Assembly (NCBI GenBank): GCA_040275305.1
Contig: JBEOJY010000007.1
Coordinates: 795 to 64,794, forward strand
Length of the DNA: 64,000 bases
Reading direction: 5' to 3'
From: Bdellovibrionales bacterium
Lineage (GTDB): Bacteria; Pseudomonadota; Alphaproteobacteria; UBA9219
Under the pieces are notes generated by a model. It searched no databases. It saw only the letters and a list, made by a program, of their open reading frames with translations, and had not been told where the DNA came from. Of this stretch, positions 14,030 through 33,049 are shown in pieces. Both the position numbers and the translations under genes were made by a program. Position 1 is the stretch's first letter. Each line of letters begins with the position of its first letter.

Positions 14030-14194
14030 AAGGGCTGTCATTCCGCACGTAGCGTCCGGCCGAAGGTCGGAAAGCGGAGATGCGGAATCCGATGTTCGAT
14101 CAACTTCATGAAAAACATCGGATTCCGCATAAATTTTCTTATCAAATCGCTTCGCGATCCGAAAAGAAAATTTTGCGGAATGACCGCCCTTTTT
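14030..14194. repeat. Palindromic MITE, family G (gggctgtcattccgca ... tgcggaatgaccgccc) with internal inverted repeat gcggaatccgatg/catcggattccgc
   Basis: Inverted repeats can be read directly in the eno-ribD divergent intergenic region. Confidence 0.55.
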
Positions 14195-14220
14195 TTCGGA
14201 ATCTCAAGGAAACTGAGTCT

Positions 14221-15225: not shown

Positions 15226-15483
15226 AACTGGGCAGCATTTTATTATTTTCATGATCACAAAGAATACTTTCATAAGCCAATTTTATACTTACATCTCTTT
15301 CATCGCTTAGGCCTTCAATAAACACAGGATTTTCCAGTTAGATTAAGCCAAAATTAAGCCTGATTGGGTTACAAATCACCTCATAAGACGAATATTTTAG
15401 CAACAACAGTTGCGACAAAAAGTGATAATATAAATGGGGCTGAAAAGATAGTTGTCCAGCCCAGAAAGAAAAAGGTCCCGACC

Positions 15484-15897: not shown

Positions 15898-16201
15898 CGA
15901 TTATGACAACCTTCTTGTCAACCCCATAGAACAAGCCGCACGCAACGCCGTGGCCGCGCAAAATCCAAATCCCGGATTGCAAGACGTGCTTGATCGCGTG
16001 GTCAAAACGCAAGAAAACTTCCAGAAATGGGGAGTTGCCCCCATGATGGCTAAGGGAATCGCCACCATGCGCGACGTTGTCGTAAGCGGAAGCGAACCCG
16101 TAGGCAGCCAAAGGACGGCCTACTCCCTCATGCAAGCGAAAGACCCGATCCGCCGCCCCGGCTCCCAGAAGCCCGCGCGCGGTCCAAAACTTACGCACTA
16201 G
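15890..16201 (+). CDS. Hypothetical protein B (about 103 aa), translationally coupled to protein A
   Basis: Its start ATG overlaps the upstream stop codon (ATGCGTAA). No family recognised. Confidence 0.4.
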   Translation: MRNDYDNLLVNPIEQAARNAVAAQNPNPGLQDVLDRVVKTQENFQKWGVAPMMAKGIATMRDVVVSGSEPVGSQRTAYSLMQAKDPIRRPGSQKPARGPKLTH

Positions 16202-16332
16202 GCCAAAACGCTCACGCCGCTTTGCTATGCCGGATCGAATAACCGAAATAGAGGCATAATGGACAAAAAGGTGTGGCTGGAATCAGGTTTTTGAGAGCAA
16301 AAACTGGATAATTTTCGAACGTCTTTCCGGCT

Positions 16333-17976
16333 TCATTCCCCTGTGGATTTTGACTTTGTTTTTCCAGTAAGCGAAGGAGCGGTCGCAAAGGCTGCCGAAA
16401 GGAGCGCTTTTGTGTAGTCCTCTTGCGGGTTGGCAAAGAGCGTTTTTGCCAGACCTCTTTCGACGGGCTTGCCGTCTTTCATGACCAAAACGGCGTGCGA
16501 CAAGGCTTTGACGACGCGCAGATCATGGCTAATGAACAGGTAGGCGAGGCCGTGTTTTCCTTGCAGGTCGCGCAACAACTCGACGATTTGCGCTTGCACC
16601 GACATATCGAGCGCGGAGGTTGGTTCGTCCAGCACGATCATTGAGGGTTTCAGGATCAGGGCGCGGGCGATGGATATGCGTTGGCGCTGTCCTCCGGAAA
16701 ATTCGTGCGGGTAGCGGTGGCGCGATTCCGGATCAAGCCCGACTTCGTGGAGGGTTTCGACGACGCGCTTGTTACGTTCTGTTTGCGCCATTTTTGGTTC
16801 GTGGATGCCAAGGCCTTCGGCGACGATTTCGGCGACGGTCATGCGGGGGCTGAGGCTGCCGAAGGGGTCTTGAAACACAATTTGCATAGCGCGGCGCTGG
16901 GGGCGTAGCTCGTTTTTGCTCAGTTTCGCTAAATCTCGCCCCATGAAGATTGTCGTTCCGGCGAATGGCAATAGACGCAAGATCGCAAGGCCCAGCGTTG
17001 TTTTGCCGGAGCCCGACTCGCCGACGATGCCCAGCGTTTCTCCCTTGCGGAGTCGTAGCGATACGCCATCGACGGCGCGAACGTAATCGACGGTTTTTCG
17101 CATCACGCCTTTTTTGATCGGGAAAGAGACTTTGAGGTCGTTGACGTTCAGAATTTCTTCCGCGTTTTCCGCAACAGGTCTGGCTTCGCCATGCGGCTCC
17201 GAAGCTAGCAGCATTTGCGTGTAGGCATGGCGCGGTTTTGCGAAAAGATTTTTCGCGGGAGCCTGTTCAACGATTTCACCTTTGCGCATGACGCAAACGC
17301 GGTCCGCCATGCGTCGCACAAGGTTTAGATCGTGCGTGATGAGCAGCATGGCCATGCCAAGTTTCTTTTGCAGGTCTTGCAGCAGCGCGAGAATCTGCTG
17401 TTGCACAGTGACATCCAGCGCCGTCGTAGGTTCGTCAGCGATGAGCAGCGCAGGGTCGTTCGCAAGCGCCATGGCGATCATCACGCGCTGGCGTTGGCCG
17501 CCTGAAAGCTCGTGGGGAAAGGCGTTCAGCCGCTTTTCAGGCGTGGGAAGCGCTACTAGATTCAAAAGCTCAAGGACGCGCGCGCGGGCTTGCGCTTCGT
17601 CCATGTTTTTGTGTAGGCGCAAAATTTCGCCAACCTGTTTCTCGATCGTGTGCAGCGGGTTGAGCGAGGTCATTGGCTCCTGAAACACCATGGCCATGCG
17701 GTTGCCGCGAATGGTTTGCATGGTTTCTTCCGAAGCGCCTACGAGCTCTTGCTTGTCGAAGACAATGCTCGAACCAGCATGATGCGCGGCGGCGGGGCGT
17801 GGGAGAAGTTGCAGGATCGACAGGGCCGTGACGGATTTTCCGGAGCCGGACTCTCCAACCAACGCCAACGTTTCCCCTTTTTTGATCGCGAAGGATGCGC
17901 CTTTAACAGCTTCGACTGTCTGGGAACCGTTGCTGAATGTCACGCCAAGATTTTTGACTTGTAGCAGGCTCATGCG
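16333..17976 (-). CDS. yejF: ABC transporter ATP-binding protein with two fused ATPase domains (YejF / DppDF-fusion type)
   Basis: Two Walker A motifs (GESGSGKS), two ABC signature motifs (LSGGQRQR) and two Walker B motifs. The start is taken at [11 protein letters not shown]. Confidence 0.8.
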
Positions 17977-19025
17977 GATTTCTCCGCTTGTTTGCGCGGG
18001 TCGAAGGCATCGCGTACCGCCTCGCCGATGAAGATCAGGAGGGTTAGCATCACCGCCAGCGCAGTGAAGGATGTGATTCCCAGCCATGGGGCTTGCAGAT
18101 TGTTTTTACCCTGATTGAGCAACTCGCCGAGGGAGGGGGATCCGGGGGGAAGGCCGAAGCCAAGAAAATCAAGCGCGGTCAGGGTTGTGATTGAGTGGTT
18201 CATTACGAAGGGCAGATAGGTCAAGGTTGCGACCATGGCGTTGGGCAGCATATGGCGAACCATGATCGTCATGTCGTTCGCCCCCAAAGCTCGCGCGGCT
18301 CTCACATAGTCGAAATTACGCGCGCGAAGAAATTCGGCGCGAACGACATGGACAAGCTGCATCCACGAAAAAAGCAGCATCAGCAGCAACAGCCACCAGA
18401 AATTTGGTTGAACAAGGCTTGCCATGATGATCAGCAGGTAGAGGACGGGCATGCCCCCCCAGATCTCGATGAAGCGTTGGGCCAAAAGGTCGGTCAGCCC
18501 GCCGAAATAGCCTTGCGCGGCTCCGGCGGCGATGCCGATCAGCGAGGAAAAGAAAGTCAGCGTCAGACCGAATAGAACCGAGATGCGGAAGCCGTATATG
18601 ACTCGCGCGAGCACATCGCGGCCTTGGTCGTCGGTGCCGAGCCAGTTGGTCGCGTCGGGCGGCGAGGGGGCGGGTTGAGGCAGGTTATAGTTAATCGTGT
18701 TGTAAGAAAAAGGTATGAGAGGCCAGACCATCCAGCCTTTGGCCTCGATCAGTTTTTTGACGTAGGGATCGCGGTATTTGGCTTCGGTCTGGAACTCGCC
18801 GCCAAAAGTCGTTTCCGGATAGCTTTTGAAGATAGGGGCGTAGTATTGGCCGTCAAACTTTAGCAATAGGGGCTTGTCGTTAGCTACAAATTCCGCGCAC
18901 AGCGTTACCGTGAATAGGATCACGAAGATCCATAGAGACCAGAAACCGCGTCGGTTGGCCCGGAAATTGGCCAAGCGGCGCTTATTAAGGGGGGACAGGG
19001 GGGGAGACAGGGTCGGCAGCTTCAT
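17970..19025 (-). CDS. yejE: ABC transporter permease, YejE-type
   Basis: 351 aa with six predicted transmembrane helices and the ABC permease EAA-like loop region. The gene overlaps the yejF start. Confidence 0.8.
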
Positions 19026-19173
19026 ATTTTCCTCTGTTCGGGAGGGCTGACACTAGACCATGTTCGGCGCAGGCGGGCAAGGGGGCTGGAGATCTTTATC
19101 GCGCTTGTCACATGGCGATATTGAGATTATTAAGAAGCCCGCTTATTGAGCTTGTGGAGTTATAGGTCAGATA

Positions 19174-20202
19174 ATGGAATATCAACAACTATTACAAGTT
19201 TCTAAGGAAATTATACTGGATCAGATGGTTCCAGTTCTATCACGGGGCTTTGGAAATCTTGTCACGAGGTTTCGTGAGGGTGCGGAGTTACGTGAGTATG
19301 TAGCAACAAACGGCATTGAAGCGGCATTGGATCAAGATAGTAATATTTTTCTGAGTTTAAGGAAGTCAGGCAAAGAGTTTGCAACCAATCAGGAGAAGCT
19401 TGCCGAACGAGCGTTTGGCCACCACTTTCAGAGTCAGTTTCCAGATGTTTGCGTGCTGGGCGAAGAACTTGGCCTTAAGGGTAAGCATTCCAAAATAGTT
19501 TGCCTGATTGATCCAGTTGATGGCACGTCGGCGATGATATGGCAAGCAATTGCTACAGCTTTGGATGTTCAAGACAAGCCAAACTATCCGCCTGCATTTG
19601 GCGTATCAGTCGGATTTACTGATGAGCGTCTTGCGGTTGCCGGGGTTATCGTTGAATTGGTACCCAATGGTGGGGAATTGAAAGTTGGTTCAATCTGGTT
19701 GGGGTGTTCGGGACAGCGCACGCAATGCGACGGGGTTATTGTCGGAGAATTAATTGTTCCCCAGAATCTTTCTGGGATGCAACTGATTTCTACTGTTCCT
19801 GAGGTTATGTTTAACGCTTTTGAAACATGGGGTGGTTTTCAGGGATTACTGGAAGCAACGGAAAAACCGCCTATAACAGGACAGAACTGCATCGGGTTTA
19901 TGAAACTGTTAGATTCAGGCCTATTTATTGCGTATGAAGGGGACCTGACACCCATTGATGCTGCTGCCATTGTTCCAATTCTTGTAGGGGCAGGAATACG
20001 GGTTACAGACAGAATTGGGCAGAGTATTGTTATATCCCCGCATGGTTGTGATCGTGAACATACGATTCTCGCGGGTCCTCCGGCACTACATCAAGAAGCC
20101 CTTCATGCAATTCTGAGGGGTGTTCCCGCAGAGCGTAACACTTTTCAGAAACTCAGGAATCAAACTTGCGGCGGCTATGCGCAGAAGTTCCCTCAACCAT
20201 AG
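19174..20202 (+). CDS. Inositol monophosphatase / CysQ-family phosphatase homolog (unusually long at 342 aa)
   Basis: Motifs VLGEELG, CLIDPVDGTSAMI and a C-terminal D-AAA...AG region. GC content is markedly lower than in neighbouring genes. Confidence 0.6.
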   Translation: MEYQQLLQVSKEIILDQMVPVLSRGFGNLVTRFREGAELREYVATNGIEAALDQDSNIFLSLRKSGKEFATNQEKLAERAFGHHFQSQFPDVCVLGEELGLKGKHSKIVCLIDPVDGTSAMIWQAIATALDVQDKPNYPPAFGVSVGFTDERLAVAGVIVELVPNGGELKVGSIWLGCSGQRTQCDGVIVGELIVPQNLSGMQLISTVPEVMFNAFETWGGFQGLLEATEKPPITGQNCIGFMKLLDSGLFIAYEGDLTPIDAAAIVPILVGAGIRVTDRIGQSIVISPHGCDREHTILAGPPALHQEALHAILRGVPAERNTFQKLRNQTCGGYAQKFPQP

Positions 20203-20287
20203 GGGCATGCTTTCGCGCAGGTTTTGTTTGAAAGCTGCGCGTGGCTGCGCTATATGTGCCGCTCAACCTGATATTCCTATCCCTTGC

Positions 20288-20380
20288 GGAGGGGTGGCCG
20301 AGTGGTTGATGGCGCTCGCCTGGAAAGCGGGTGTACGGTGTTGAATCGTACCGTGAGTTCGAATCTCATCCCCTCCGCCA
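20288..20380 (+). tRNA. tRNA-Ser (anticodon GGA) with a long variable arm and encoded CCA
   Basis: GGAGGGG/CCCCTCC acceptor stem. Anticodon loop cuGGAaa. Long extra arm. T-arm GAGTTCGAATCTC. Confidence 0.85.
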
Positions 20381-20399
20381 TTCTCTTAAAAAAATCAAC

Positions 20400-20475
20400 C
20401 CCATGCATGCTACCCTACAGACAGTTATCTTGATATTGCAGGAAAAAAATGAGCCACATGCGTCATGCCCTTGAT
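20400..20475. repeat. MITE fragment (outer family left end ccatgctaccctacag plus a partial gtcatgccc arm)
   Basis: Matches the ends of the nested elements at 61233-61459. Confidence 0.5.
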
Positions 20476-20711
20476 AAGTTGGCGGGTTCAAGGAACAAGT
20501 GCAACACAGGGCACCTTGTTGATGCTGGAGTTGACCATGCGCCTCTTCGCAACCTTCCACATCAACGGCTCTGACGCGGGATTGCTCAATAGGATTCATC
20601 TATGATTGGTTAGCGCTCTCGCCATGTTGTCAGCAACTAAAATGCGTGGCAGCATAAGATCGTAGACACCAAAACATATCAGGCGCAGGGTCAAAAAATG
20701 GTCTCAAACAC

Positions 20712-21362
20712 TTGGAAGAGAAAGTTGACGTGACTATAGCTCGTGACAGAATAAGCTCAAAGCATCAATTAGCCTTGCTGCTTTTAGCCGCGTTGTTAAG
20801 CTTGATGGGCTTCGCTCATCCACAACTGGCAGAAGCAAGTAGCGTCTCGTCAACAAGGTCTAAACCGAACATGGCACATGATCAAAAAATGTTCCTGCAC
20901 GTCCCCCTGAATACTCGGGAACAAAACCCATGTTCTCCGTTATCGCCTGGCCCGACTTGGCGAGGCGTTCTTATTCGCGCGCCCATTCATGCGAAGTTTA
21001 AATCTGGATTCACCGCAGGGGAGAGGCATTCTTTCGCCGCCATTCCACTCTGTGGATATTATCTCGTCGATTTGGAGCGATTACGCCCCGGCGTGCCGTT
21101 GCGCATTGTGGCCGTCGACCAACTTACTCAAGAGCGCTTCGAAGGAGATGTTATCGACAAAGAAGAAAATCTGGAAGAGCCACCACCAGAAATCCCTGCC
21201 CACAGCGCCTCTAATCTCGAAGGCATCGCAGTCGGCAGTTGGTTCAACCCAAACCTACCGGATTATGTCTCGTTGCCAGCAGTTGCGGCCACCTATGCCG
21301 TCCATGTTGAATACGGAAGCTATCGCTCGAATATTGTCGAGATTCAAGTCTCTGCGGAATAA
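20712..21362 (+). CDS. Hypothetical secreted protein (signal peptide ...LALLLLAALLSLMGFAHPQLAEA)
   Basis: Hydrophobic N-terminal signal sequence. No family recognised. The start may lie at the internal GTG. Confidence 0.4.
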   Translation: MEEKVDVTIARDRISSKHQLALLLLAALLSLMGFAHPQLAEASSVSSTRSKPNMAHDQKMFLHVPLNTREQNPCSPLSPGPTWRGVLIRAPIHAKFKSGFTAGERHSFAAIPLCGYYLVDLERLRPGVPLRIVAVDQLTQERFEGDVIDKEENLEEPPPEIPAHSASNLEGIAVGSWFNPNLPDYVSLPAVAATYAVHVEYGSYRSNIVEIQVSAE

Positions 21363-21426
21363 TAGAACGTCACATTACGACAGATAAATCAATGCTATGC
21401 TTCGTTTCCTTGAAATCACGAAAATG

Positions 21427-21598
21427 GGCCGTCATCGCGAGGAGCCGCAGGCAACGCGGCGATCCAGAGTCGGTGGGGGTGTCCTGTGGGATTCTGGATT
21501 GCTTCCGCCGTCGTTGCTACGCAACTATGGCGGATAGGTCGCCCCCAAGAGGGGGCTCGCAATGACGGTCCTTGGGGGGGGCTCCTCGCGATGACCGC
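21427..21598. repeat. Composite family-A MITE with a duplicated right arm
   Basis: A gtcatcgcgaggagccgcaggcaacgcggcgatccagag left arm, followed by two right-arm copies (ctcgcaatgacggtcc and ctcctcgcgatgac). Confidence 0.65.
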
Positions 21599-21663
21599 GC
21601 TTGTTGCTATTTCTGGTTTTCAATCGTACGGGGTCTACATCAAATTGGGGGAGAGGTTAGGCG

Positions 21664-22080
21664 ATGAAATTCCAAGCGCTTATTGTGATGGCGTGCTTTT
21701 TGTTGGCAACGCCTGTTAATGCTAATGTAGTTTCGAAGGAGCCTATGGAATCGGCAAGAGGAGAAGGCGCCATGGATTTATTTAGTTTTGGAGAGATGTT
21801 TGTATTAAGGCCAGATCAATCGGTCGAAGGTCCCGAAGGGCTTTTTGTCAAACACCTTGCGTATGGCCATAAAAGATTGAAGGAGGGGGGAGATAAGTCT
21901 TTTTTGGGATTGGAGGTCAGACAGGGCGATGCTTCAACCACACTGCGTGTCGACGTTCCCATTCAACGCCCTATAACCACAGAATGGCGTGATTTTACTT
22001 TTCATTTTGTCAAATGCGAAGAAAACGGCCCTCCACATTCTAAATCGAAGCCTGTCGAGCTGTTCGTTACACGCAGATAA
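21664..22080 (+). CDS. Hypothetical small secreted protein (138 aa)
   Basis: Clear signal peptide MKFQALIVMACFLLATPVNA. No family recognised. Confidence 0.45.
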   Translation: MKFQALIVMACFLLATPVNANVVSKEPMESARGEGAMDLFSFGEMFVLRPDQSVEGPEGLFVKHLAYGHKRLKEGGDKSFLGLEVRQGDASTTLRVDVPIQRPITTEWRDFTFHFVKCEENGPPHSKSKPVELFVTRR

Positions 22081-22172
22081 TTCGTTAGGGCTCTTCGACG
22101 GTTGGATCGTTATGGCTTATCATTTGTCGCTACAACCATCTTCGTAACTTTCCGGTCATTCATGAGTGTTGC

Positions 22173-24278
22173 CTAGGCGCTAGCTTTCGTCGGAACTTTT
22201 CCCATGATTTCCTTGACGCCTGCTTTGTCCGTTTTGAAGACGTGGTTGATGAGCCATTGACGCAAGAAACTCATGAGGTCGGTTGTTAGTGTCGCTTTAC
22301 CTGCGAGGAAGTCTGCTTGGAAGTTCTTCACTGTTTCCACAAGTTCTTCGTGAGTTTTCTTGTGTTCGCTAAGGCTTGACAGGCGTCCCTGAACCCAGAT
22401 CGTTTCCTCGCGTTTGAAGTGGTCGATTGTATATTGCACAAGCTTGCCGAGAATTTCTGAGGCGATGTCACGGCCTGCGCCATTCATCATCGCTTGGTTG
22501 AGCTCGTTGATATATTGCACGAGCATCTTGTGGTCGGAATCGATGACTTGGTGCCCAGATACCCAAGCGGGGCCCCACTCTAACGTTCCGCCGCCGCTCT
22601 GCAATTGGATCAGGAAGTCGTCGGCGACGGCGCGCATGGTTTCGGCCTGAATTCCTAACCCATCTGCCTCCTTCATCACGATACGGATGGATTTATTGCT
22701 TTCTTGCGTTCCGTCGCGCACTGCGGCTACGTTGCTTGCGACTTCTGTTGTGCTTGTATGCGCTTGCTGGATGTTGCGCGTAATTTCTTGCGTCGCCGCG
22801 CCTTGTTCTTCCACGGCGGAAGCGATGGCGCTGGAAATTCCGTCCATCTCCTGAATGGTTTTGGCGATACCTTCGATGGCTTGCACCGTGTTGTTCGTTT
22901 GTTGCTGGACCGAGGATATCTGTTGCGCAATTTCGTCGGTTGCTTTGCTGGTCTGGTTGGCGAGCGATTTGACTTCGTTGGCTACAACGGCGAATCCTTT
23001 GCCTGCTTCTCCGGCACGGGCGGCTTCGATGGTCGCGTTTAACGCCAACAGGTTGGTTTGCGCCGCGATTGCGTTAATTAAGTTGATGACGTCGCCAATT
23101 TTTGTCGCGGCGGTGGTTAGCTCCCTTACCATTGTGTCGGTACTTCTCGCTTTTTCGGCAGCGTTTTTGGCAATTTCGCTTGCGCGACTGACCTGTGCCG
23201 CAATTTCTCGGCTTGATGCCGATAGCTCTTCTGAGGCGGCTGCAACGGTCTGCACGTTGCTCGCTGCGGATTGGCTGGCCGATGCGACCACGTTGGCGCG
23301 TTGCTCCGTGTTGTCGCAGATGTGGCCCATCGATTCCGCGTATTTTTTGACATCGCCTGCTGCATTAATGACAAGTTTGATGATGTCAATTACCTTGCTG
23401 TTAAATTGTTCAGCAAGCTGTGCCTGCATTTGCGCGGCCTTGTCTTTTTCCGCTTGATTTTGCTCTTGTTGGCGAGACATATCTTGTGATTTCTCCATGG
23501 CTCCGCGAAAAACGTTGAGCGCGCGAGACATTTCGCCGACTTCGTCTTTTTGATCCACGTAGACGATCGGAATATTTAGTTCGCCTCCCGACATTTTGGT
23601 CATATCGAGGGTAATGCGCCGCAGCGGCGTTACAACTGCTTTGGTTACGACTACCGACAGCGCGATAACGATGATGGCGCCGAAAAATGCAAACAATATG
23701 AATACTATAGTTTTTTCGCGAAACGCTTTATCTACGTCATCCAGATAGACGCCGCTTCCTATTACCCAGCCCCAAGGGGCGAAGTTTTTAATGTAGGAAA
23801 CTTTGCGCACGGGTTTATCAAATCCCGGTTTGGGCCAGAGGTAGCCGTAAAATCCTTGGCTTTCTTTTTGTACGATGCTTACCATGTCGTTGAAGAGAAA
23901 CGCTCCATCAGGGGTTTTGACTTTGTCCAGCGGTTTTCCATCTAATTCTGGCTTGATGGGGTGCATGATCATCGTGGGGGTAAGATCATTGATCCAGAAA
24001 TAGTCACCGTTGCCATAGCGCTGGGCTTTGATATTTGTCAGAGCCGCAGCTTTCGCGTCGGCTTCAGTCATGTGCCCTGCTTTGGCGTCTGCCTCATATT
24101 TTGCTAATATCTGATATGAACTTTCCACAAGGTTTTTAACCATCACTTTACGCGAATCTAGCAATTCCTCGCGCATTTGATAGAGAGTCATTATGGTAAT
24201 CGCTGCGATTCCTAGTACAGTCGCACCGATTAGAATCGACATTTTATGCGATAATTTAAGATTGGCGAACCATTGCAT
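22173..24278 (-). CDS. Methyl-accepting chemotaxis protein with a periplasmic sCache_2 sensor and a C-terminal bacteriohemerythrin domain
   Basis: Periplasmic segment YFWINDL...[14 protein letters not shown] transmembrane helix and HAMP domain. A methyl-accepting signalling domain with Q/E-rich heptads. C-terminal W..[15 protein letters not shown]...HFKREE...HKKTHEE...WLINHV, which resembles the DcrH hemerythrin. Confidence 0.85.
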
Positions 24279-24485
24279 ACGATTCTCTCCTTGTTGTGTA
24301 TGTCAGGCTACCTGTGCGTGGGCTAGGTTCAATAGAGCCCTTTGATTTTTCATTCCATGGTGTGCAGTTTTTTGCGTTTTTTCGCAGGGTGTTGTTTAGA
24401 TGCAATAGGTATGGCTGCTTTGTGAGTGAATAATTTTTTGTGTATACCTCTAATAGTTCGAGAGTTGGCAAATAGTCTCCGATAG

Positions 24486-24670
24486 CGCAGCGTCACACCC
24501 GCGTAGGCGGGTGTCCATTACCCGATGTTGAGAATGAGCGCCAATAGGCAAGTGAAGCGCCTGCGTCGAGATGAGGAGATGGACACCCGCCTGCGCGGGT
24601 GTGACAACGGGTTCGTCCACTTTATCTGATTGGCGGCCGATGGACACCCGCCTGCGCGGGTGTGACGCTT
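24486..24670. repeat. Cluster of three family-F palindromic arms (gtcacacccgcgtaggcgggtgtcc / ggacacccgcctgcgcgggtgtgac)
   Basis: Three GC-rich hairpin-forming repeats lie within about 190 bp. The same family occurs at 60282-60365 and 61287-61400. Confidence 0.6.
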
Positions 24671-24755
24671 GTTTTGCCGCAACATTTTCCCAATTCTTCA
24701 CATGAAATGAGTATAGAAATATTTTGACGCGCAATTCTTGTCGTTTTTTTTGCGA

Positions 24756-25802
24756 TTAGCCGCTTATAGATATCGGATTGCCCCAAGCGCTTTTGTTGCG
24801 ATTTTCGTGCGATGATTTCGCTCCCATTAGCGCGGAGGAGGTTGCGCTATCCATTCCCATTTGCGCCAAAACCATGGTTGTGAAAAGCGAAGAGGAACCG
24901 GATTTTAGGCCGCCCGTCACTGATGTGGGGAGCGATGAATTGTTGGTGAGCGCTGACGACAGGTGTGTGATGTCGCGCTCCATTTTGGGCGTGCCATAGT
25001 ATGGCGTTGAAGTCCCGGCGTTTGCGAGCGTGGCGTTGACATTGTTGTGCGTGGGCAAGGATGTTTTTGAAGCCGATGTCCCGACCAATGACTCGGCGCT
25101 GGCAAGCAAGGCCGCCGTTTGCGGCGAGTCGAATTTTTTTTCAAAGGATTTGTATATTTGGGCAACTGTGCGCGGATTGCCGTTCGAGTCGTAGAATACT
25201 GAGGCGTTGGCGTTCGCGGCTTCCGGGAGCACCGTCGCGGCCGCAGTATCCGGGGCCGTTTTCATTTGGGTTAGAAACGCGCTGGCGCCGCTCGCGCCAA
25301 GGAAATGCGCGAGATAGAGTTCGGTCGGGCCGATTTTGCCGCCGACATTGGATTGTAAAATTCCAATATTTTCCTTGTCGAGTTCCGCAGCCATTAGCGC
25401 GGAGACTTGTGGGTCGTTGCGAAGATTGAGTATGGTTTGGCGCGCTTGTGGGTTATCGACTTTGGCCGAGCCGTCGGCGGCTTGCGTGATGTGGCTTGCG
25501 TAGTTGCCGAGGCCGTGTTTCGCGCCACAGGACTTGATCATCCGCAACCAGGTCTGGTTCGTGAACTGATAGAGACCAGTCGCGCTGCTGGTCGAAGCCT
25601 TGGCGTTGGCGTCGAAGCTGCTTTCTTGCGCGGCTTTGCCTAGCAGATAGGAGAAGTCTACGCCGGTCTTGGCGGCGGCAGATTTGATGGCGTCGGCGAC
25701 CTTGTGCGTGAGCGCTGAGAATGTTTGCGCGGTCTGCTTTAGCGTCGCAGCGAGTTCTTGCTGATCGTTGGCGTTGGGGATGGCGGCAATTGCTGAAACC
25801 AA
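24756..25802 (-). CDS. Lytic transglycosylase (SLT domain) with a Ser/Thr/Ala-rich C-terminal tail
   Basis: SLT catalytic region ...LLGKAAQESSFDANAKASTSSATGLYQFTNQTW..., with the catalytic Glu in the ES motif and a GLYQ motif. Confidence 0.6.
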   Translation of the reverse strand: MVSAIAAIPNANDQQELAATLKQTAQTFSALTHKVADAIKSAAAKTGVDFSYLLGKAAQESSFDANAKASTSSATGLYQFTNQTWLRMIKSCGAKHGLGNYASHITQAADGSAKVDNPQARQTILNLRNDPQVSALMAAELDKENIGILQSNVGGKIGPTELYLAHFLGASGASAFLTQMKTAPDTAAATVLPEAANANASVFYDSNGNPRTVAQIYKSFEKKFDSPQTAALLASAESLVGTSASKTSLPTHNNVNATLANAGTSTPYYGTPKMERDITHLSSALTNNSSLPTSVTGGLKSGSSSLFTTMVLAQMGMDSATSSALMGAKSSHENRNKSAWGNPISISG

Positions 25803-25989
25803 GGGAGCCTCTGGATATCTGGATTTTTTATTCGTGGCTTTATATGCATTTGGCGTGCCAAGTTGCCGCTCGAATTTGCTTGCGTTAAGGTTTTTGTCGT
25901 TTAGATATTTGTTTCTCTATCGTTCTGATATTGGGGGCGAGAGCTGCATATCCTGCTGATAGAGCGGAAATAAATTGGATTTAGGGCTG

Positions 25990-26540
25990 GTCTAGATTTG
26001 AAAAACTGCACCTTGGGATCGACGAAGTCTCTCAAGACATTCTGGCCGTCGATTTGACGGAAAACAGCGTTGGCGATCAGGAACATTTGTCTGACCTGTT
26101 GGACGATTTGCCGAAAGACGTGAAGCTCAAACAGGTCACGGGGGACGGCATATACAACAGCCACGCTTGTTACGAGGATGTCTGCGCGCGCGGGGCAAAG
26201 TTCGTCACGCCGCCTCGAAGAAACTCTGTTCTGCCGCGAGGAAGGCCGCTGAAAAACGAGCCGCTCCGCACCCGCGCCGTGCGCGATTGTCGCCGCCGAG
26301 GGCCGGACGGCATGGAAAAAACATCACCGTTATCACCGTAGATCGCTCTCAGAAACAGGCATGTACCGCTTCAAAACGTCCTTCGGCGGCTCGCTCTCGT
26401 CACGAACCTTCTCCCGCCAGAAAGTCGAAGCGATCCTGAAAGTCAAAACCCTCAACGCCTTCCGAAAACTCGCCGCTCCGGAATACTGACCCTCGCAAAA
26501 GAAGGAGGGGCTGCGTCTGTCAGGCAAATTTATTCAACAA
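25990..26540 (+). mobile_element. IS5-family transposase C-terminal fragment (frameshifted pseudogene) with a terminal repeat at about 26522-26540
   Basis: Translation ...VTGDGIYNSHACYEDV... (DDE region), and in a +1 frame ...HHRYHRRSLSETGMYRFKTSFGGSLSSRTFSRQKVEAILKVKTLNAFRKL, a typical IS5 C-terminus. The end motif tttattcaacaaggcc is shared with 28711-28730. Confidence 0.6.
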
Positions 26541-26613
26541 GGCCAGTCAGGTATCTTGCTTTCTTTTATCGTATTCGCTTATTTATTTGCGACTTGTGTT
26601 TTGACGTTGAGTT

Positions 26614-28017
26614 TCACACATGTAATGCTCGCCCATCCATGGCGAGGGCGGCTTCCTTGACGGCTTCGTTGAGGGTTGGGTGCGCGTGGCAGGTGCGGGC
26701 GATGTCTTCGCTGGAGGCTCCGAATTCTAACGCCAGAGACAATTCCGCGATGAGCGTTCCAGCGTCGGGGCCGACGATGTGCGCGCCAAGCAAGCGGTCC
26801 GTTTCTCCGTGGGCTAGCAACTTGACAAATCCTTCCGCTTCGGCCATCGCGCGGGCGCGGCCGTTGGCAGAGAAGGGAAATTTGCCGACTTTGTAGGGAA
26901 CTTTCTCGCTGCGGAGTTGTTCTTCTGTTTTGCCGACGCAGGCCGCTTCGGGGCTGGTGTAGACGATGGCGGGGATGGCGTCGTAGCTGATGTGGCCTGA
27001 TTGCCCCGCGATGATTTCCGCGCAGACCACGCCTTCCTCTTCGGCTTTGTGCGCGAGCATAGGCCCAGCGATCACGTCGCCGATGGCGTAGATCCCCGCC
27101 ACGTTGGTTTCAAAGCGATGGTTGGTGATGATGCGCTTGCGGTCGTCGCGCGCGACGCCAGCCTTGTCGAGGCCCAACCCATCGGTGAAGGGGCGGCGGC
27201 CTACGGCGACAAGCAGAGCGGAAGCTTGCAGCGTTTCGGCTTTGCCTCCGGCAGCGGGTTCAAGCGTTATGGTGACTTTTTCGCCTTCGGTTTTTGCCAA
27301 TGTGACTTTTGAAGAGAGGCGGAATTGAAGGCCTTGCTTGGCAAGGATTTTCTGCATGGTTGTGGAGATTTCGTTGTCCATGCCGGGGAGGATGCGATCC
27401 AAAAATTCCACGACCGTGACGCGCGAGCCGAGGCGTTGCCAGACGGAGCCGATCTCAAGGCCGATGGCGCCGCCGCCGATGACGACGAGGCTTTCCGGGA
27501 CTTGCGCGAATTCCAGCGCTCCTGTCGAAGTTACGATGCGTTTTTCGTCAATGGCGATGCCGGACAGGGGTACGCTTTCCGAACCTGTGGCGATGATGAT
27601 GTTTTTGGCTTCGTATTCATTGCGGCCGTTTTTCCCGTCCACGATGATCTTGCCGTCTCCCAGTAAGCTTGCGCGTCCCTTGAGCCAGTCGATCTTATTC
27701 TTGCGAAACAGGAAGTTGAGGCCTTCTGTGTTGTCCTTCACGACCTTGTTCTTGCGCCCCATCATGGTCGCAAGGTCGAGGCTGACGAGGCAGATCTTGA
27801 TGCCATGCTGGGCCGCGTGAAGTTTAGCGTCCTGAAACTTTTCGGAGCTGACAAGCAGCGCTTTCGACGGAATGCAGCCGACGTTCAGGCAGGTTCCGCC
27901 TAGCGTTTCGCGCATTTCCACGCAAGCCGTCTTAAGACCAAGTTGCTCCGCGCGGATGGCCGCGACATAGCCGCCGGGGCCGCCGCCGATTACGATCACG
28001 TCATAGGGGGTGGGCAT
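26614..28017 (-). CDS. lpdA: Dihydrolipoamide dehydrogenase, second copy
   Basis: 467 aa with GGGPGGY and CLNVGCIPSK motifs. The gene is clearly paralogous to 5769-7160. Confidence 0.9.
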   Translation of the reverse strand: MPTPYDVIVIGGGPGGYVAAIRAEQLGLKTACVEMRETLGGTCLNVGCIPSKALLVSSEKFQDAKLHAAQHGIKICLVSLDLATMMGRKNKVVKDNTEGLNFLFRKNKIDWLKGRASLLGDGKIIVDGKNGRNEYEAKNIIIATGSESVPLSGIAIDEKRIVTSTGALEFAQVPESLVVIGGGAIGLEIGSVWQRLGSRVTVVEFLDRILPGMDNEISTTMQKILAKQGLQFRLSSKVTLAKTEGEKVTITLEPAAGGKAETLQASALLVAVGRRPFTDGLGLDKAGVARDDRKRIITNHRFETNVAGIYAIGDVIAGPMLAHKAEEEGVVCAEIIAGQSGHISYDAIPAIVYTSPEAACVGKTEEQLRSEKVPYKVGKFPFSANGRARAMAEAEGFVKLLAHGETDRLLGAHIVGPDAGTLIAELSLALEFGASSEDIARTCHAHPTLNEAVKEAALAMDGRALHV

Positions 28018-28205
28018 TGCGTTACCATTTATAAAATTTTTGTGGTTAGATTAGGAACGTAGACGAAGGCGGAGGGAAGTCAAGGACTCGAAAATAGCTA
28101 TTTCCGCACGGATTCAACTAGCCAACGCATAATTTTTAGGGGTCAGCGAGCTGGCCCCCGAAAACTGGACAGGATATGGCGACTAGCTAAGAGAGAGTCC
28201 CGCCC

Positions 28206-28730
28206 CTAAAATGGCGAAGAGCCAAGGGGATAGAGATGACGAATATACGAAAGAAGCACAGCGCGGAATTTAAGGCGAAGGTGGCGATGGCGGCGAACGC
28301 GTTTCAAGACCGCGTCCACCGTCGCCGCGCGAAGGCAGACGGTCGAATAATCCGGCAACCGCGCTTCTTTGCCAAGGACGCTCCGCAAAAAGCCTTTCAG
28401 GCCACGATACGGCAAGCGGTACACGGCCTTGACGACCAGCATCATCTCGATCAGAGTTTGGCTGTATTCCGGCGGTCGGCCTCGTTTCCCTTCGCTTATT
28501 GCAGGCTTTTCAAGCGCTTTCGGGTTCAGGTGAACCGTGATGTCGTATCTTCTTTCCAGCCCCTTGTTGTACGCGCTCCAGTTTTTGATGGACTTCTTCG
28601 GGGGGAATCTTCTACCTTCGCTCATGGACGTTGTCTTTGGATTTTGCAAGAATCCGCAGCGTCCACCTCAAACCCTTAATTTTCAATCCCCATACCAAAA
28701 TTTCAGATCCATTTATTCAACAAAGCCCTT
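28206..28730 (-). mobile_element. IS5-family transposase N-terminal fragment (147 aa) with its terminal repeat at about 28711-28730
   Basis: The N-terminal HTH/insertion-element N-domain pattern (…NKGLERRYDITVHLNPKAL…). The end motif tttattcaacaaagcc matches 26522-26540. Confidence 0.55.
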
Positions 28731-28887: not shown

Positions 28888-30267
28888 TTGAAAACATATA
28901 ATTCTACATGCGTTTCTTTTTACCTCAGTCTCATTCTTGTGACTGCGCCGCAGACAGTATTTTCCATGGATCATCATGATCACGACGCGATGCATGTGAA
29001 AGAAACGGCCAAAACGAACTCTGACGGCAAGAGTTCTGAATCGCAGATGCTTCACGAGCATCACGCCTCGGTGTCTTCGGATGCAGACGCCGCGCAAAAA
29101 TCTTTAAGCTCGCTCGGCCCCTATGCGATGACCCGCGATGCTTCCGGCACAAGCTGGCAGCCAGATTCGACTCCTCATCAGGGCCTGCACATGATGGCCG
29201 GAAAATGGAGCGTCATGGCGCATGGATTTGTCAATGGAGTCTATGACCATCAGGGAAGCAAACGCGGCGACGACAAAGCATTCAGCAGCAGCATGGCAAT
29301 GGTGATGGCGCAGCGCCCGATAGGAGAGCGCGGTACATGGGGTTTGCGCGGCATGATCTCGCTCGATCCCCTGATGGGCGCGAGGGGCTATCCTCTGATA
29401 TTCGCGACCGGAGAAACCGCCGACGGTCGCGAACATCTCGTGGACCGCCAACATCCACATGATCTCTTTATGGAATTGGCCAGCACCTACAGCTACCGCC
29501 TGACGGAAAACTCATCCATATTCATATACGGTGGCTTACCCGGAGAACCAGCGCTTGGCCCCTCCGCCTTCATGCACCGCTTTTCCGGCATGGACAATCC
29601 CGAAGCGCCGATTACGCACCACTGGATGGACAGCACGCATATCACTTTCGGCGTCCTAGCCGGCGGCTACGTCCATGGCCCATGGAAGATAGAAGCTTCG
29701 GGATTTAAAGGACGAGAACCCAATCAGCGCCGCTACGACATTGAATCTCCTAAACTCGACAGCGCCTCGACGCGCTTGACCTTTAACCCGACCCCAAATT
29801 GGTCATTACAAACCAGCTGGGGTTACATCCACAGCCCAGAACAGCTCGAGCCAAATGTGAACGAACACAGGTTGACGACATCCGCGACCTATAACCTGCC
29901 TTTCGAGGGCAACAACTGGGCGACAACCTTCGTCTGGGGTCGCAAGATGGACGATCCCGGCCATAAGCTGGACGGTTTCCTACTGGAAAGCTCGCTGATC
30001 ATCCAAGAGGCCAACACTTTGTTTGCCCGCGCCGAACGCGCCGACGAAGCAGAATTGTTTTCAGAAGATGATCACGACCATGCCCATCAGGTCTACACCG
30101 TCAACAAAGTGAGCCTCGGCTACATCAGGGACTTTCGCCTCGCCGACCACCTGTCGCTCGGCGCGGGCGGCCTTATAAGCCGTTACGCCTATCCAGACAG
30201 CCTTGAAGACTCCTACGGATCGAGCCCAACTTCCTATATGCTTTTCATGAGATTAAAGCTGATATAG
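28888..30267 (+). CDS. Secreted His-rich protein, possible outer-membrane or metal-binding protein
   Basis: Signal peptide. N-terminal HHDHDAMH...HEHH cluster. A long Gly/Trp/Tyr-rich body compatible with a beta-barrel. Flanked by AT-rich DNA and an IS remnant. Confidence 0.45.
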   Translation: MKTYNSTCVSFYLSLILVTAPQTVFSMDHHDHDAMHVKETAKTNSDGKSSESQMLHEHHASVSSDADAAQKSLSSLGPYAMTRDASGTSWQPDSTPHQGLHMMAGKWSVMAHGFVNGVYDHQGSKRGDDKAFSSSMAMVMAQRPIGERGTWGLRGMISLDPLMGARGYPLIFATGETADGREHLVDRQHPHDLFMELASTYSYRLTENSSIFIYGGLPGEPALGPSAFMHRFSGMDNPEAPITHHWMDSTHITFGVLAGGYVHGPWKIEASGFKGREPNQRRYDIESPKLDSASTRLTFNPTPNWSLQTSWGYIHSPEQLEPNVNEHRLTTSATYNLPFEGNNWATTFVWGRKMDDPGHKLDGFLLESSLIIQEANTLFARAERADEAELFSEDDHDHAHQVYTVNKVSLGYIRDFRLADHLSLGAGGLISRYAYPDSLEDSYGSSPTSYMLFMRLKLI

Positions 30268-30373
30268 CACCAAAAACTGAGGGAAAAAATGCCGTTATAG
30301 TCTCATTCCCCCCTCGACATTTCGCGCGCTTTCCGCAATGATGGTCCCCATAAAAGGGGAGATCCTTAACGCC

Positions 30374-33049
30374 ATGAAAACGCTTGCCGATATTCGTTCG
30401 ACCTATCTGAATTTTTTTGCCGGACAAGGGCATACGATTGTCCCATCCTCGCCGCTAGTGCCGCGCAACGACCCAACTCTGATGTTCACCAATTCGGGCA
30501 TGGTGCAGTTTAAACGCCGTTTTACAGGCGACGAATCCGGCCCATATTCCCGCGCGACCTCGGCGCAGAAATCCGTCCGCGCAGGCGGCAAGCACAACGA
30601 TCTGGAGAATGTCGGCTACACCGCGCGTCACCATACCTTTTTTGAAATGCTCGGCAATTTTTCGTTCGGAGATTACTTCAAGGCGGAAGCCATCGATTTC
30701 GCCTGGACGCTCGTGACCAAGCATTACGGCCTTCCAACAGATAAGCTCCTCGTCACCGTCTATCACGAGGATGACCAAGCGGCGCAGCTTTGGAAAAAAA
30801 TTTCCGGATTCCCAGACAGCAAAATTATCCGCATCAAAACCGACGCCAATTTCTGGCGCATGGGCGAAACGGGTCCCTGCGGCCCCTGCTCCGAAATATT
30901 CATTGACCAAGGCGACAAACTGCAAGGCGGCCCCCCCGGAAGTCCAGACGAAGACGGCGACAGGTTTCTTGAATTCTGGAACCTCGTCTTCATGCAGTTC
31001 GAAGAGCAACCGGGCGGCAACCGCATCAACCTTCCCAAGCCCTCTATCGACACCGGCATGGGCCTCGAACGCATGGCCGCAGTCCTGCAAGGCGTCACAT
31101 CGAACTACGACATTGACTTGTTCAAAGCGCTGATCGGCGCGACCGCTGACCTCGTGAAAGTCGATCCAGAGGGTGCGCAAAAACCATCTTTCCGCGTCAT
31201 CGCCGACCACCTCCGCGCGACCTCCTTCCTCATTGCCGACGGCGTGCTGCCCAGCAACGAAGGGCGCGGTTACGTCCTGCGCCGCATCATGCGCCGCGCC
31301 ATGCGCCACGCGCATATGCTCGGCGCGAAGGAACCGCTGATCTACCGCCTCGTGCCGGAACTCGTGAAGCAGATGGGCGTCGCCTATCCCGAATTGCCCC
31401 GCGCCGAAGCATTGATAACCGAAACCCTGAAGCTTGAAGAAACCCGCTTCAAGCAAATGCTGGATCGCGGCCTCAAATTGCTCGACGAAGAATGCGGTAA
31501 ACTGGATAAAAGCCAACCGCTCGCAGGCGAAGTCGCCTTTAAGCTCTACGACACTTTTGGATTTCCTCTCGACCTAACGCAAGACGTTCTGCGAGGCAAA
31601 GGCCAGAAAGTTGATACTGCCGGATTCGAATCCGCAATGGCCAAGCAAAAAGCCGCCGCCCGCGCCGCATGGGCAGGTTCGGGCGACATCGGCACCGACA
31701 AGCTGTGGTACGAGCTGCGCGACGAACTGGGCGCGACCGAGTTTCTAGGCTATTCAACGGAGAAAGTCGAAGGCCAGATCACCGCGCTCGCCAGCAACGG
31801 CGCGAGGTTAGTCAACGCCAAGCAAGGCATGGATGTGCAAATTCTCGTCAATCAAACGCCGTTCTACGCCGAATCCGGAGGTCAGGTCGGCGATACTGGC
31901 GTTATGACGACGCCTTCCGGTGCCATCATCAAAATCACCGACACGAAAAAGGAAGCGGATACCGTCTGGGTCCATCTCGGCCATGTCGAGAAAGGCAGCG
32001 TCAAGACAGGCGATCCCGTCATCATGGAAGTCAATCACGAACGCCGCGCGAATATTCGCGGTCACCACTCGGCGACGCATTTGTTGCACGAGGCGCTGCG
32101 CCGCAAGCTCGGCGCGCATGTCGCGCAAAAAGGTTCGCTCGTCACGCCGGACAAGCTGCGCTTCGACTTCAGCCAACCGACCCCCATTTCCGCCGAAGCG
32201 CTTGCGGAGATCGAGTCCGAAGTCAACGCCCGCATCCGCATGAACGAAGAAGTCCTAACGCGCCTCATGTCGCCGCAGGAAGCGCAAACCAACGGCGCGA
32301 TGGCCTTGTTCGGCGAAAAATACGGCGAAGAAGTGCGTGTCCTGTTCATGGGCGGCATGGAAGCGAAAAACGCGCAAGGCAAGGAATTTTTCTCGGTCGA
32401 GCTTTGCGGTGGAACCCACGCCCGCCGTACCGGGGATATCGCCGTGTTCAAGATCGTCTCGGAAAGCGCAGTCTCTGCCGGAGTCCGCCGCATCGAGGCG
32501 CTGACCGGCCCTGCGGCTCTGGCATGGTTCGCGCAGCAGGAAAAGGCTCTGCAAGCCGCCGCAGACGCCATGAAAGCTCCCGCAGCGGAACTTCCCGCGC
32601 GCGTCGCGCAACTCGTCGAAGACCGCAAGAAGCTTGAACGCGAAGTGGCCGAATTGCGCAAGCAGGTCGCGCTCGCAGGCGCTGGCGGATCAAACGGCGC
32701 TGCGGCCTCTGCGGAACCAAAATCCATCAACGGCATCGCTTTCATCAGCCGCATTCTGAACGACGTTCCGGCCAAGGATTTGAAGCCGATGGCCGACGCT
32801 TTCAAGGCTCAGGTGAAATCAGGAGTCATCGCGCTGGTCGCTGGCAGCGAAGGCAAGGTATCCATCGTCGTAGCCGTTACGCCTGACCTCACCTCACGTA
32901 TCAGCGCCGTCGATCTCGTCAAGCTCGCCGCCGAAGCCGTCGGCGGCAAAGGCGGTGGCGGCCGCCCCGACATGGCCCAAGCCGGAGGTTCGGATATGAA
33001 CGCGATGGCGAAGGCGATTGAAGCGATTGAGAAGGCAATTTTGTCGTAA
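30374..33049 (+). CDS. alaS: Alanine--tRNA ligase
   Basis: Class II aminoacyl-tRNA synthetase motifs, an editing domain HxxxH (HHSATHLLH) and a C-terminal DHHA1 domain. About 891 aa from MKTLADIRS. Confidence 0.9.

Follow-up and report, generated by a model that had tools for sequence, protein, structure and literature searches.

A second lpdA gene enclosed by relics of two insertion sequences: putative scar of a multi-step genome rearrangement

The second of two lpdA genes in a 64-kb stretch of DNA (hereafter the window) lies reversed between the two ends of a broken insertion sequence (IS) of the IS903 group (IS5 family). With somewhat better than even confidence, we regard this locus as the scar of a multi-step rearrangement by which lpdA was flipped. 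According to this model, an IS903-group element would have resided 69 bp downstream of lpdA, and an element of the IS3 family upstream of it. A neighboring block of 9.7 kb, reaching from a gene with an SLT domain to a gene for an ABC ATPase, would have been inverted, thereby parting the ABC gene from lpdA. An illegitimate (non-homologous) inversion of about 2.3 kb, broken within the IS903-group element on one side and within the IS3 element on the other, would then have turned lpdA over; the junctions would have cost the former element about 105 bp (nt 439-543) and the latter about 1.28 kb (nt 140-1415). The outcome would be the order now found: the C-terminal part of the IS903-group element (+), lpdA (-), a 5' stub of the IS3 element (+) and the N-terminal part of the IS903-group element (-). 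We infer both the order of these events and the coincidence of the junctional losses with the flip of lpdA.

The reversed gene (26614-28017, minus strand) possesses an intact frame for a dihydrolipoyl dehydrogenase of 467 amino acids, which scores 577.6 bits with TIGR01350 (cut-off 408.8) and carries the Pfam domains Pyr_redox_2 and Pyr_redox_dim. The lpdA gene at 5769-7160, its paralogue, lies within a pyruvate dehydrogenase operon and not beside sucAB. No exact match to the protein is on record; it is 93% identical in amino acids to protein P0121. Among the matches listed in a contig search with lpdA, identities did not exceed 67%, and useful synteny was lacking. Comparison with the orthologue on contig L004 gives a dN/dS of 0.075 at a dS of 0.57, which marks the second lpdA, as judged from its codons, as a working gene under purifying selection. 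A first-pass annotation of this DNA had suggested that an inversion detached the gene from a 2-oxoacid dehydrogenase operon. This idea is refuted since the orthologue is a solitary gene in all relatives that were compared: no genes for an E1 or E2 component are found near it on contigs L004, L006, L090 and L132-L134, where its neighbors are the ABC ATPase gene (L004), hypothetical genes (L006), AnmK (L090), or pirin and COQ9 (L132-L134). We also rejected the view of lpdA as the E3 gene of a former sucAB-lpdA operon, as the orthologue adjoins neither sucA nor sucB in the relatives examined.

The two pieces of the IS903-group element that enclose lpdA were mapped onto an intact relative, an element of 1084 bp at positions 93-1176 of contig L001. 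Its 308-amino-acid transposase, P0001, is recognized by the NCBIfam model for the IS5 family (NF033579; 283.5 bits, cut-off 140) and comes from another sequencing run than the window. The piece to the left of lpdA (26003-26544, plus strand) corresponds to IS nt 544-1084 and to transposase residues 148-308; blastn aligns it with L001 636-1176 at 93.2% identity, it is likewise matched by P0001 in tblastn, and a 1-bp insertion near 26300 shifts its reading frame. The piece to the right (28290-28727, minus strand) corresponds to IS nt 1-438 and to residues 1-112, read from an ATG at 28625, and blastn aligns window positions 28731-28290 with L001 89-530 at 92.1% identity. Pfam assigns PF13737 to the N-terminal part (E = 1.2e-16) and PF01609 to the C-terminal part (E = 4.7e-8). 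P0001 is the nearest relative of both (94.6% amino acid identity for the N-terminal and 92.5% for the C-terminal part), and the next best relative reaches at most 85%. Hence, the two halves on opposite strands that the first-pass annotation had noticed on either side of lpdA are indeed of the same IS type. The same holds for the matching terminal motifs that it had reported: the motif occurs exactly twice in the 64 kb, at 26529-26544 and 28712-28727, against about 0.1 occurrences expected by chance, and is the terminal inverted repeat of the element. Its right end lies at 26544, its left end at 28727, and the two ends read GGCCTTGTTGAATAAAT (26544-26528) and GGCTTTGTTGAATAAAT (28727-28711, minus strand), respectively.

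That the halves add up to roughly one transposase, as had been proposed, is correct in so far as the N- and C-terminal parts do not overlap and provide residues 1-112 and 148-308; the sum falls short by IS nt 439-543 (105 bp; residues 113-147, about 35 amino acids), a segment absent from both parts and not found elsewhere in the 64-kb window. The region of the first catalytic aspartate (VVDTTG) belongs to this missing segment, and an open frame with the DDE triad of an active element is consequently not present, given the lost residues 113-147 and the 1-bp insertion. The minus-strand reading frame of 147 amino acids, taken at first for the N-terminal half, encodes transposase for only 112 codons, counted from the ATG at 28625, and beyond them covers part of another IS in antisense. 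When the joined parts were used as a query against the protein database, the closest intact transposase was again P0001 (82% amino acid identity over the joined query, about 93% at the nucleotide level). No further copy or fragment of the IS903-group element is present in the 64-kb window. The right end of the element still adjoins the 3' flank of lpdA and its left end the flank on the side of alaS, a geometry that fits a break within one IS copy, and we infer that both pieces derive from a single one.

The orientation of lpdA was assessed by comparison with the gene order in relatives. In the closest of them (contigs L004/L005; lpdA 93% identical in amino acids), the ABC ATPase gene (+) is followed after 2 nt by lpdA (+) and, after a further 830 bp, by alaS (+), while lpdA (-) and alaS (+) point in different directions in the window; the earlier proposal that the lpdA segment is reversed was thereby borne out. 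The sequence that lies between lpdA and alaS in the window is unlike that in L004. The L004 type is represented by runs SRR7119508/SRR7119519, the L008 type by run SRR17331997. On contig L008 the order is A1, A2, SLT(+), corA(+), with the SLT gene directly after A2 and in the same direction, and on an outgroup contig the SLT gene (+) and lpdA (+) are co-directional and 7.7 kb apart. Taking these three relatives together, which are short or distant and do not include a closely related complete genome, the ancestral order would have been A1-A2, SLT ... permease, ABC ATPase, lpdA, spacer, alaS, all in one replication-strand orientation, with lpdA starting 2 nt past the stop codon of the ABC gene. 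Set against this reconstructed order, lpdA is indeed inverted.

GC skew at third codon positions of the plus strand tells the same story. The value for lpdA is +0.43 in the window as opposed to -0.46 in L004. Outside the interval from 16.3 to 28.0 kb, the skew is negative in all 35 of 35 genes (mean -0.24); inside it, that is, in the 9.7-kb block and lpdA, seven of the eight genes have a positive value (mean +0.21; Mann-Whitney p = 2.5e-5). The skew changes sign near 16.2 kb and once more near 28.3 kb, and the right-hand switch coincides with the junction between the IS3 stub and the N-terminal part of the IS903-group element (J2).

One inversion had initially been considered sufficient for the entire arrangement. 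However, the adjacent block at 16333-26002 (9.7 kb) is flipped relative to the relatives as well, and at least two events are consequently needed. As judged from Pfam and NCBIfam, this block contains, on the minus strand, genes for a yejF-like ABC ATPase, a permease, an inositol-phosphatase-like protein, a tRNA-Ser, two hypothetical proteins, a Cache/hemerythrin chemoreceptor and the SLT-domain (FlgJ-like) protein, the latter together with its upstream spacer of 200 bp. The ABC gene, flipped too, now lies about 8.5 kb from lpdA. At its left edge, the strand-inverted region is bounded by junction Ja (16202-16332), an AT-rich spacer of 131 bp between the stop codon of the hypothetical gene A2 (+) and that of the yejF-like ABC ATPase gene (-). 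At the right edge of the 9.7-kb block, junction J1 (26002/26003) links the region upstream of the SLT gene to nt 544 of the IS903-group element. Ja itself contains neither a recognizable repeat nor the remains of an IS, and the favored model is thus left without one that could account for the first inversion. An IS3-like 9-mer at 16299-16307 is compatible with chance and was discarded. The segments 16150-16400, 25750-26060 and 28018-28300 share no direct or inverted repeats above those in shuffled sequences, and the spacers 25803-26002 and 16202-16355 have no match among plasmid records.

On the other side of lpdA, a plus-strand fragment of an IS3-family element (28148-28296) comprises the left inverted repeat, followed by some 20 codons from the start of orfA (ATG at 28236; MTNIRKKHSAEFKAKVAMAA), where the helix-turn-helix N-terminus of the transposase begins. 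It represents nt 1-139 of an element of 1415 bp, shows about 80% identity to IS3-family left ends at 39 metagenome loci (e.g., L100 7719-9133) and aligns likewise with the beginnings of transposase genes annotated as IS3 family; the 1415-bp relatives carry terminal repeats of about 59 bp. The rest of the element (nt 140-1415, about 1.28 kb, with orfB and the right end) was found nowhere in the window by either blastn or tblastx. In view of the first catalytic aspartate region lost from the IS903-group element, its frameshift and the reduction of the IS3 element to 139 nt, both relics beside lpdA are dead. At J2 (28290-28296), IS3 nt 139 is joined to nt 438 of the IS903-group element: homology to the latter stops at 28290 and homology to IS3 at 28295/28296 in most loci, so that 7 bp (GCGGCGA) are assignable to both fragments as microhomology. 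J2 is an interior-to-interior joint and not a transposition joint; a joint made by a transposase was rejected here as no IS terminus is present. From the interior-to-interior character of the junctions and the 7-bp microhomology at one of them, it follows that template switching or a process of breakage and joining, and not a transposase, produced them.

Two spacers separate lpdA from its IS neighbors. The one from the IS right end to the lpdA stop codon (26545-26613; 69 bp, as read from the sequence) bears no resemblance to what follows lpdA in L004. The other, from the lpdA start to the IS3 left end (28018-28147; 130 bp, AT-rich, GC 0.42), is dissimilar to L004, to IS3 ends (z below 1.5) and to plasmid records. 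Its portion 28094-28147 resembled the right end of an IS3 element from Roseibium at first, but when the spacer was compared with the closer 1415-bp relatives, the similarity did not rise above shuffled controls (z = -0.8 and 1.4), and an IS3 right end abutting the next copy, as in a circle or tandem junction, was rejected.

These junctions bear directly on the explanation offered in the first-pass annotation, one clean reciprocal inversion whose breakpoints lie within the IS and beyond lpdA. While the order and orientation of the two IS parts and the flip of lpdA relative to alaS agree with it, it is already contradicted by the junction sequences. With 105 bp missing, the parts are not exactly complementary. 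The reciprocal junctions that the first-pass annotation had anticipated are not there: the partner at the inner junction J2 is a truncated IS3 whose remainder does not reappear at J1, where the IS is instead joined to the upstream spacer of the SLT gene. The outer ends have no target duplication in common, and the ABC gene expected beside lpdA lies far off in the flipped block. Such an inversion is consequently very improbable as the origin of the whole structure; what persists of the earlier proposal is the inversion of lpdA itself, with its reversed skew. Mis-joins at repeats during assembly have to be considered too, given that the source is a metagenome-assembled genome, deposited at NCBI as "Bdellovibrionales bacterium" (protein MER2519430.1). 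Yet three independent Logan contigs from run SRR28882998, L135 (14115-21487), L007 (24666-27889) and L009 (27865-31300), reproduce Ja, J1 and J2 at 100% identity, and these junctions are hence not assembly artefacts. They moreover connect unique sequence to IS interiors, which repeat collapse does not produce, and GC skew marks the same boundaries independently. We accordingly attach next to no probability to an artefact.

The outer ends of the IS903-group element pose a difficulty for the favored model. In IS orientation, their flanks TATAAGAAG and AGTCAGGTA agree at three of nine bases, and a 9-bp target duplication is thus not present; the member on a Klebsiella plasmid (L131) has a 9-bp duplication, ATATTGAAC, on both sides, and the three visible flank bases in L001 are consistent with one. 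A single undisturbed IS copy split by an inversion should retain its target duplication, and this finding counts against the favored model. Rescue of a one-copy origin needs an extra event, for instance an adjacent deletion on the side of the left end; deletions adjacent to IS903 are common (PMC11708052). The favored model also has to assume the loss of its reciprocal product (IS3 nt 140-1415 joined to the IS903-group element from nt 439 onwards), which is absent from the window. Finally, J2 on its own would be explained more simply by a microhomology deletion from the IS3 element into a complete second copy of the IS903-group element.

A simple deletion at J2 would favor another history, in which two inverted IS903-group copies once flanked lpdA, placed there by two insertions or by duplicative inversion, in a Tn903-like arrangement. 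The gene would have been flipped either directly by that duplicative inversion or when the copies underwent homologous recombination with each other; two unrelated deletions would then have left nt 544-1084 of the left copy and nt 1-438 of the right one, which was shortened by a microhomology deletion starting inside the neighboring IS3. Bacterial inversions most commonly arise by recombination between IS copies in inverted orientation. The interior joint at J2, with its 7 bp of microhomology between same-strand sequences, is a classic signature of simple deletion, the outer ends without a common target duplication are as expected of different insertions, and IS903-related rearrangements are on record (PMC11708052). 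Against this history speaks the circumstance that two parts complementary in type and nearly abutting would have arisen by chance only: for two copies of a 1084-bp IS truncated at random, we calculate a chance of about 9% for a non-overlapping gap of at most 105 bp, and the combined estimate is ~0.25 x 0.09. A second copy has left no other trace in the 64-kb window, the nearest intact transposase stems from a different sequencing run, and more events are required, namely an extra copy and two deletions. Furthermore, recombination and duplicative inversion both predict matching flanks, which were not observed; only two independent insertions escape this objection. We consider the two-copy origin possible, though on balance doubtful.

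Instead of proceeding step by step, as in the favored model, the rearrangement could have occurred in a single replication-based event, with serial template switching on microhomology giving rise to both flips (9.7 kb and 2.3 kb) and to the junctional losses of 105 bp and about 1.28 kb. Three ancestral adjacencies have given way to three new ones with a common breakpoint at the ABC/lpdA boundary; the microhomology at J2 and the loss of material at junctions agree with such an event, and so does the skew reversal, which is equally strong in the 9.7-kb block and the lpdA segment, neither of which looks visibly older. However, microhomology can be checked at one junction only, the two flips need not have coincided, and the distance from the nearest relative (dS of 0.57) amply accommodates separate events. 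We deem a single event of this kind unlikely; if true, the locus would exemplify a complex rearrangement with multiple breakpoints in a natural bacterium, in place of serial ordinary inversions and deletions.

Collectively, four combined lines of evidence indicate that a stretch of about 12 kb, lpdA included, was turned over recently, and the locus can serve as a worked example of how such scars are read from IS fragment maps, junction sequences, the gene order of relatives and third-codon GC skew. It also cautions that IS halves that look complementary are no proof of a clean one-step inversion. With respect to the gene itself, lpdA has been cut from the ABC-transporter gene, probably its former co-transcription partner. 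Now positioned behind a 130-bp spacer, it would need a promoter of its own, and its expression must consequently have been rewired, to judge from this arrangement; a promoter scan upstream of lpdA revealed no consensus site facing the gene.

The element beside lpdA shares with the IS903 group a length of about 1.08 kb, a single DDE transposase of about 308 amino acids with PF13737, PF01609 and NF033579 (as in its intact relative P0001), and terminal inverted repeats beginning with GGCTTTGTTG; the first 10 bases are the same in the Klebsiella element L131. It differs in that its amino acid identity to plasmid-borne members amounts to only about 41-44%, which makes it an unnamed, distant member of the group, and in being a dead, split relic with a frameshift, without nt 439-543 and without a matching target duplication. 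As in other IS-associated inversions, a flipped segment has IS sequences at its edges and reversed skew inside. Usually, however, such inversions arise by homologous recombination between two complete inverted copies, both of which are left intact, whereas the joints in the window lie inside two unrelated elements, with sequence lost and microhomology at one of them. Tn903 likewise has a gene between inverted IS903-type sequences, one of which has its right end turned towards the gene, but neither copy in the window is complete, and the right-hand piece stops on its inner side within the IS and not at a terminus; moreover, lpdA still resides near its ancestral place beside alaS and was consequently not imported as cargo of such a composite transposon. 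Intramolecular replicative transposition of the IS26 type also leaves the halves of a sequence inverted around an inverted segment. In that mechanism, each half abuts a terminus of the transposing IS, with the target duplication in reverse complement, whereas the IS3 stub in the window meets its half at interior nt 139, and a second IS3 copy is missing. Neither a new mechanism nor a new system is implied; the lpdA locus is an ordinary, if well documented, instance of a genome rearranged in association with IS elements.

The second lpdA gene (26614-28017, minus strand), an intact 467-aa reading frame, lies between two pieces of an IS5-type transposase gene, as the first-pass annotation had proposed; Pfam, mapping onto a related element, and a shared nearest relative all bear this out. 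The C-terminal fragment (26003-26544, plus strand) carries PF01609 and is frameshifted by a single extra G near 26300, also as described, and the N-terminal fragment (28290-28727, matched as far as 28731, minus strand) carries PF13737; both are IS5-family transposase domains. When the fragments were fused into a joint query and run against a protein database, full-length 308-aa transposases were recovered, the top match being P0001, which passes NCBIfam NF033579. The 1179-bp contig that encodes P0001, L001, holds a nearly entire IS903-group element (L001 93 to 1176, 1084 bp) with the ends GGCCTTGTTGAATAAAT; a member of this group on a Klebsiella plasmid has ends that start GGCTTTGTTG and a 9-bp target duplication. 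The N part (28731-28290) aligns with L001 89-530 (IS nt 1-438; 92.1% identity) and the C part (26003-26544) with L001 636-1176 (IS nt 544-1084; 93.2%). Both parts are of the same kind of IS: P0001 is closest to each of them (94.6% for N, 92.5% for C), the runner-up reaching at most 85%. The terminal motif occurs at exactly two sites in the 64 kb, one at the IS terminus in each fragment. That the halves sum to one transposase holds insofar as they are non-overlapping and of the same IS kind, covering residues 1-112 and 148-308, but IS nt 439-543 (L001 531-635), coding for the VVDTTG motif with the first catalytic Asp, were found nowhere in the 64-kb window.

The inner ends of the two parts differ in what they abut. 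At J1 (26002/26003), IS nt 544 meets a 200-bp spacer, AT-rich, that lies upstream of the SLT-domain gene at 24756-25802 (minus strand), and at J2 (28290-28296), IS nt 438 meets the left end of an unrelated IS3-family element (28148-28296, plus strand), a stub absent from the first-pass annotation. Its terminal repeat is followed by ~20 codons from the beginning of orfA (ATG at 28236, MTNIRKKHSAEFKAKVAMAA); it resembles the 5' ends of genes annotated as IS3-family, and its identity with nt 1-139 of 1415-bp elements on 39 metagenome contigs is ~80%. JGI metagenome contigs frequently carry complete 1415-bp relatives whose terminal repeats measure ~59 bp; a 24-mer of the repeat is common to 39 loci. 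The IS5 match reaches down to 28290 and the IS3 match up to 28295/28296, so that 7 bp (GCGGCGA) are common to both; J2 is thus an interior-to-interior joint with microhomology and was not made by a transposase. Two mirror-image 147-aa ORFs overlap here on opposite strands (28206-28679) and were rejected as real gene products, each being a hybrid of an IS and an antisense IS: the plus-strand frame runs from the IS3 orfA start into antisense IS5, and the minus-strand frame, previously taken as a 147-aa transposase half, codes for transposase no further than codon 112, counted from the ATG at 28625, and is antisense IS3 stub thereafter. A search for the reciprocal junction gave no support to a clean exchange, as the partner at J2 is the IS3 stub and the other ~1.28 kb of IS3 was not found in the window, J1 included.

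Gene order in relatives speaks for inversion nonetheless. The lpdA nearest to the window copy (P0121; 93% identity in amino acids, 87% in nucleotides) lies on two 2.7-kb contigs (L004/L005) with the co-directional order ABC ATPase gene 3' end, 2 nt, lpdA, an 830-bp AT-rich ORF and alaS, whereas the window has the two genes on opposite strands, lpdA minus and alaS plus. Similarity to L004 breaks off at the stop codon of the ABC gene (yejF-like, 16333-18087, minus strand) and picks up again at the lpdA ATG; the breakpoint therefore lies a few bases or less from the ancestral stop. At this point (16333-16368) the window has TCA where L004 has TGA, and the frame extends by six codons. In the more distant L008 (SLT protein 64% identical), ribD, A1, A2, SLT and corA are co-directional, but the window has A1/A2 (15364-16201) and corA (34160) on the plus strand and SLT on the minus strand; on a single outgroup contig, SLT and lpdA are co-directional, 7.7 kb apart. 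Compared with the inferred ancestor, the SLT-to-ABC block (16333-26002) and lpdA are both flipped in place. Three adjacencies were lost (A2/SLT, ABC/lpdA, and lpdA-IS/alaS side) and three are new, which calls for at least two inversions with a common ABC/lpdA breakpoint or for one complex event, which we consider unlikely.

Several features of the surroundings deserve mention. The ABC operon (17970-19174) seemingly consists of one permease gene and a fused ATPase gene, with no second permease or binding-protein gene upstream; the next gene is inositol-phosphatase-like and divergent, and the operon edge may be another old breakpoint. The block also encodes a chemoreceptor (22173-24278) with Cache sensor, HAMP and MCP signalling domains and a C-terminal hemerythrin domain. 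Beyond the left IS end, the window has, in place of the unrelated AT-rich ORF of L004 (GC 0.39), a gene for a 459-aa His-rich protein (28888-30267) with a signal-peptide-like N-terminus and no Pfam or NCBIfam match. By alignment with L004, alaS probably starts at the ATG of MKTLADIR near 30374 (region 30338-30376), 36 nt past the first ORF ATG, and ~66 bp upstream of this start are kept in L004.

Base composition supports the inversion independently and shows which arrangement is the derived one. Plus-strand third-codon GC skew is negative in all 35 genes outside 16.3-28.0 kb regardless of their orientation (mean -0.24), and positive in seven of the eight inside (mean +0.21; Mann-Whitney p = 2.5e-5). 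Scanned in 200-bp windows, the skew switches sign sharply at ~16.2 kb and at ~28.3 kb, the latter being J2, so that ~12 kb (16202-28300) run opposite to the remainder of the 64-kb window. For lpdA itself the skew is +0.43 here versus -0.46 in L004, where it is in line with alaS. The window arrangement is therefore derived, and of so recent an origin that composition has not re-equilibrated. The sole ORF in the reversed region with a flank-like sign (20712-21362; -0.15), just downstream of tRNA-Ser(GGA) (20288-20380) and without a Pfam match, may be a later acquisition or not a real gene.

The fewest-step account of all junctions, towards which we lean, starts from a single IS903-group copy 69 bp downstream of a plus-strand lpdA. 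The SLT-to-ABC block would have inverted, an IS3 would have been located upstream of lpdA, and a ~2.3-kb non-homologous inversion with one break inside each IS would afterwards have lost IS5 nt 439-543 and IS3 nt 140-1415 at its joints, resulting in C-part(+), lpdA(-), IS3 stub(+), N-part(-). This account keeps the core of the earlier geometry, in which the IS is broken internally and lpdA is part of the stretch that was turned over, but not its clean reciprocal version. Its main rival, which we hold to be possible but doubtful, places two inverted IS903-type copies around lpdA, each trimmed afterwards. J2 would then be a simple microhomology deletion, at the price of a greater number of events and of surviving pieces that are complementary and nearly abutting by a coincidence we estimate at a few per cent. 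The outer flanks (in IS orientation, left TATAAGAAG and right AGTCAGGTA), compared in sequence, show no target duplication; this disfavours models with both flanks from one insertion site and is accounted for if the two copies inserted independently, but adjacent deletion or IS recombination is a common route of duplication loss in IS903-type elements (PMC11708052). An assembly artefact is opposed by independent Logan contigs from run SRR28882998 that match at 100% across the left boundary of the flipped region (L135, window 14115-21487), J1 (L007, 24666-27889) and J2 (L009, 27865-31300); together with a clean inversion, we regard it as most improbable. An SLT protein identical to that of the window, NCBI MER2519430.1, is from a metagenome-assembled genome (129-kb contig) labelled "Bdellovibrionales bacterium", a label that looks doubtful because most top matches, for lpdA and SLT as well as for the IS elements, are from Alphaproteobacteria (Micavibrio, Azospirillum, Acetobacteraceae).

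The suggestion that the inversion detached lpdA from a 2-oxoacid dehydrogenase operon does not stand. The detachment is old and has nothing to do with the IS scars, because in each of the relatives examined the orthologue of the second lpdA is solitary, its neighbours being an ABC ATPase gene (L004), hypothetical genes (L006), AnmK (L090) or pirin and COQ9 (L132-L134). The mention of sucAB is inapplicable, none being present in the window; the first lpdA (5769-7160) is part of a pyruvate dehydrogenase cluster (3984-12072: E1 alpha, E1 beta, E2, lpdA) adjoined by the lipoyl synthase gene lipA. The second copy is under purifying selection (dN/dS 0.075, dS 0.57), and the change due to rearrangement is the loss of its 2-nt coupling to the ABC gene. 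The initial observation is thus confirmed and its interpretation partly supported: the locus is a rearrangement scar of dead IS elements, a fresh instance of a well-known type of event.
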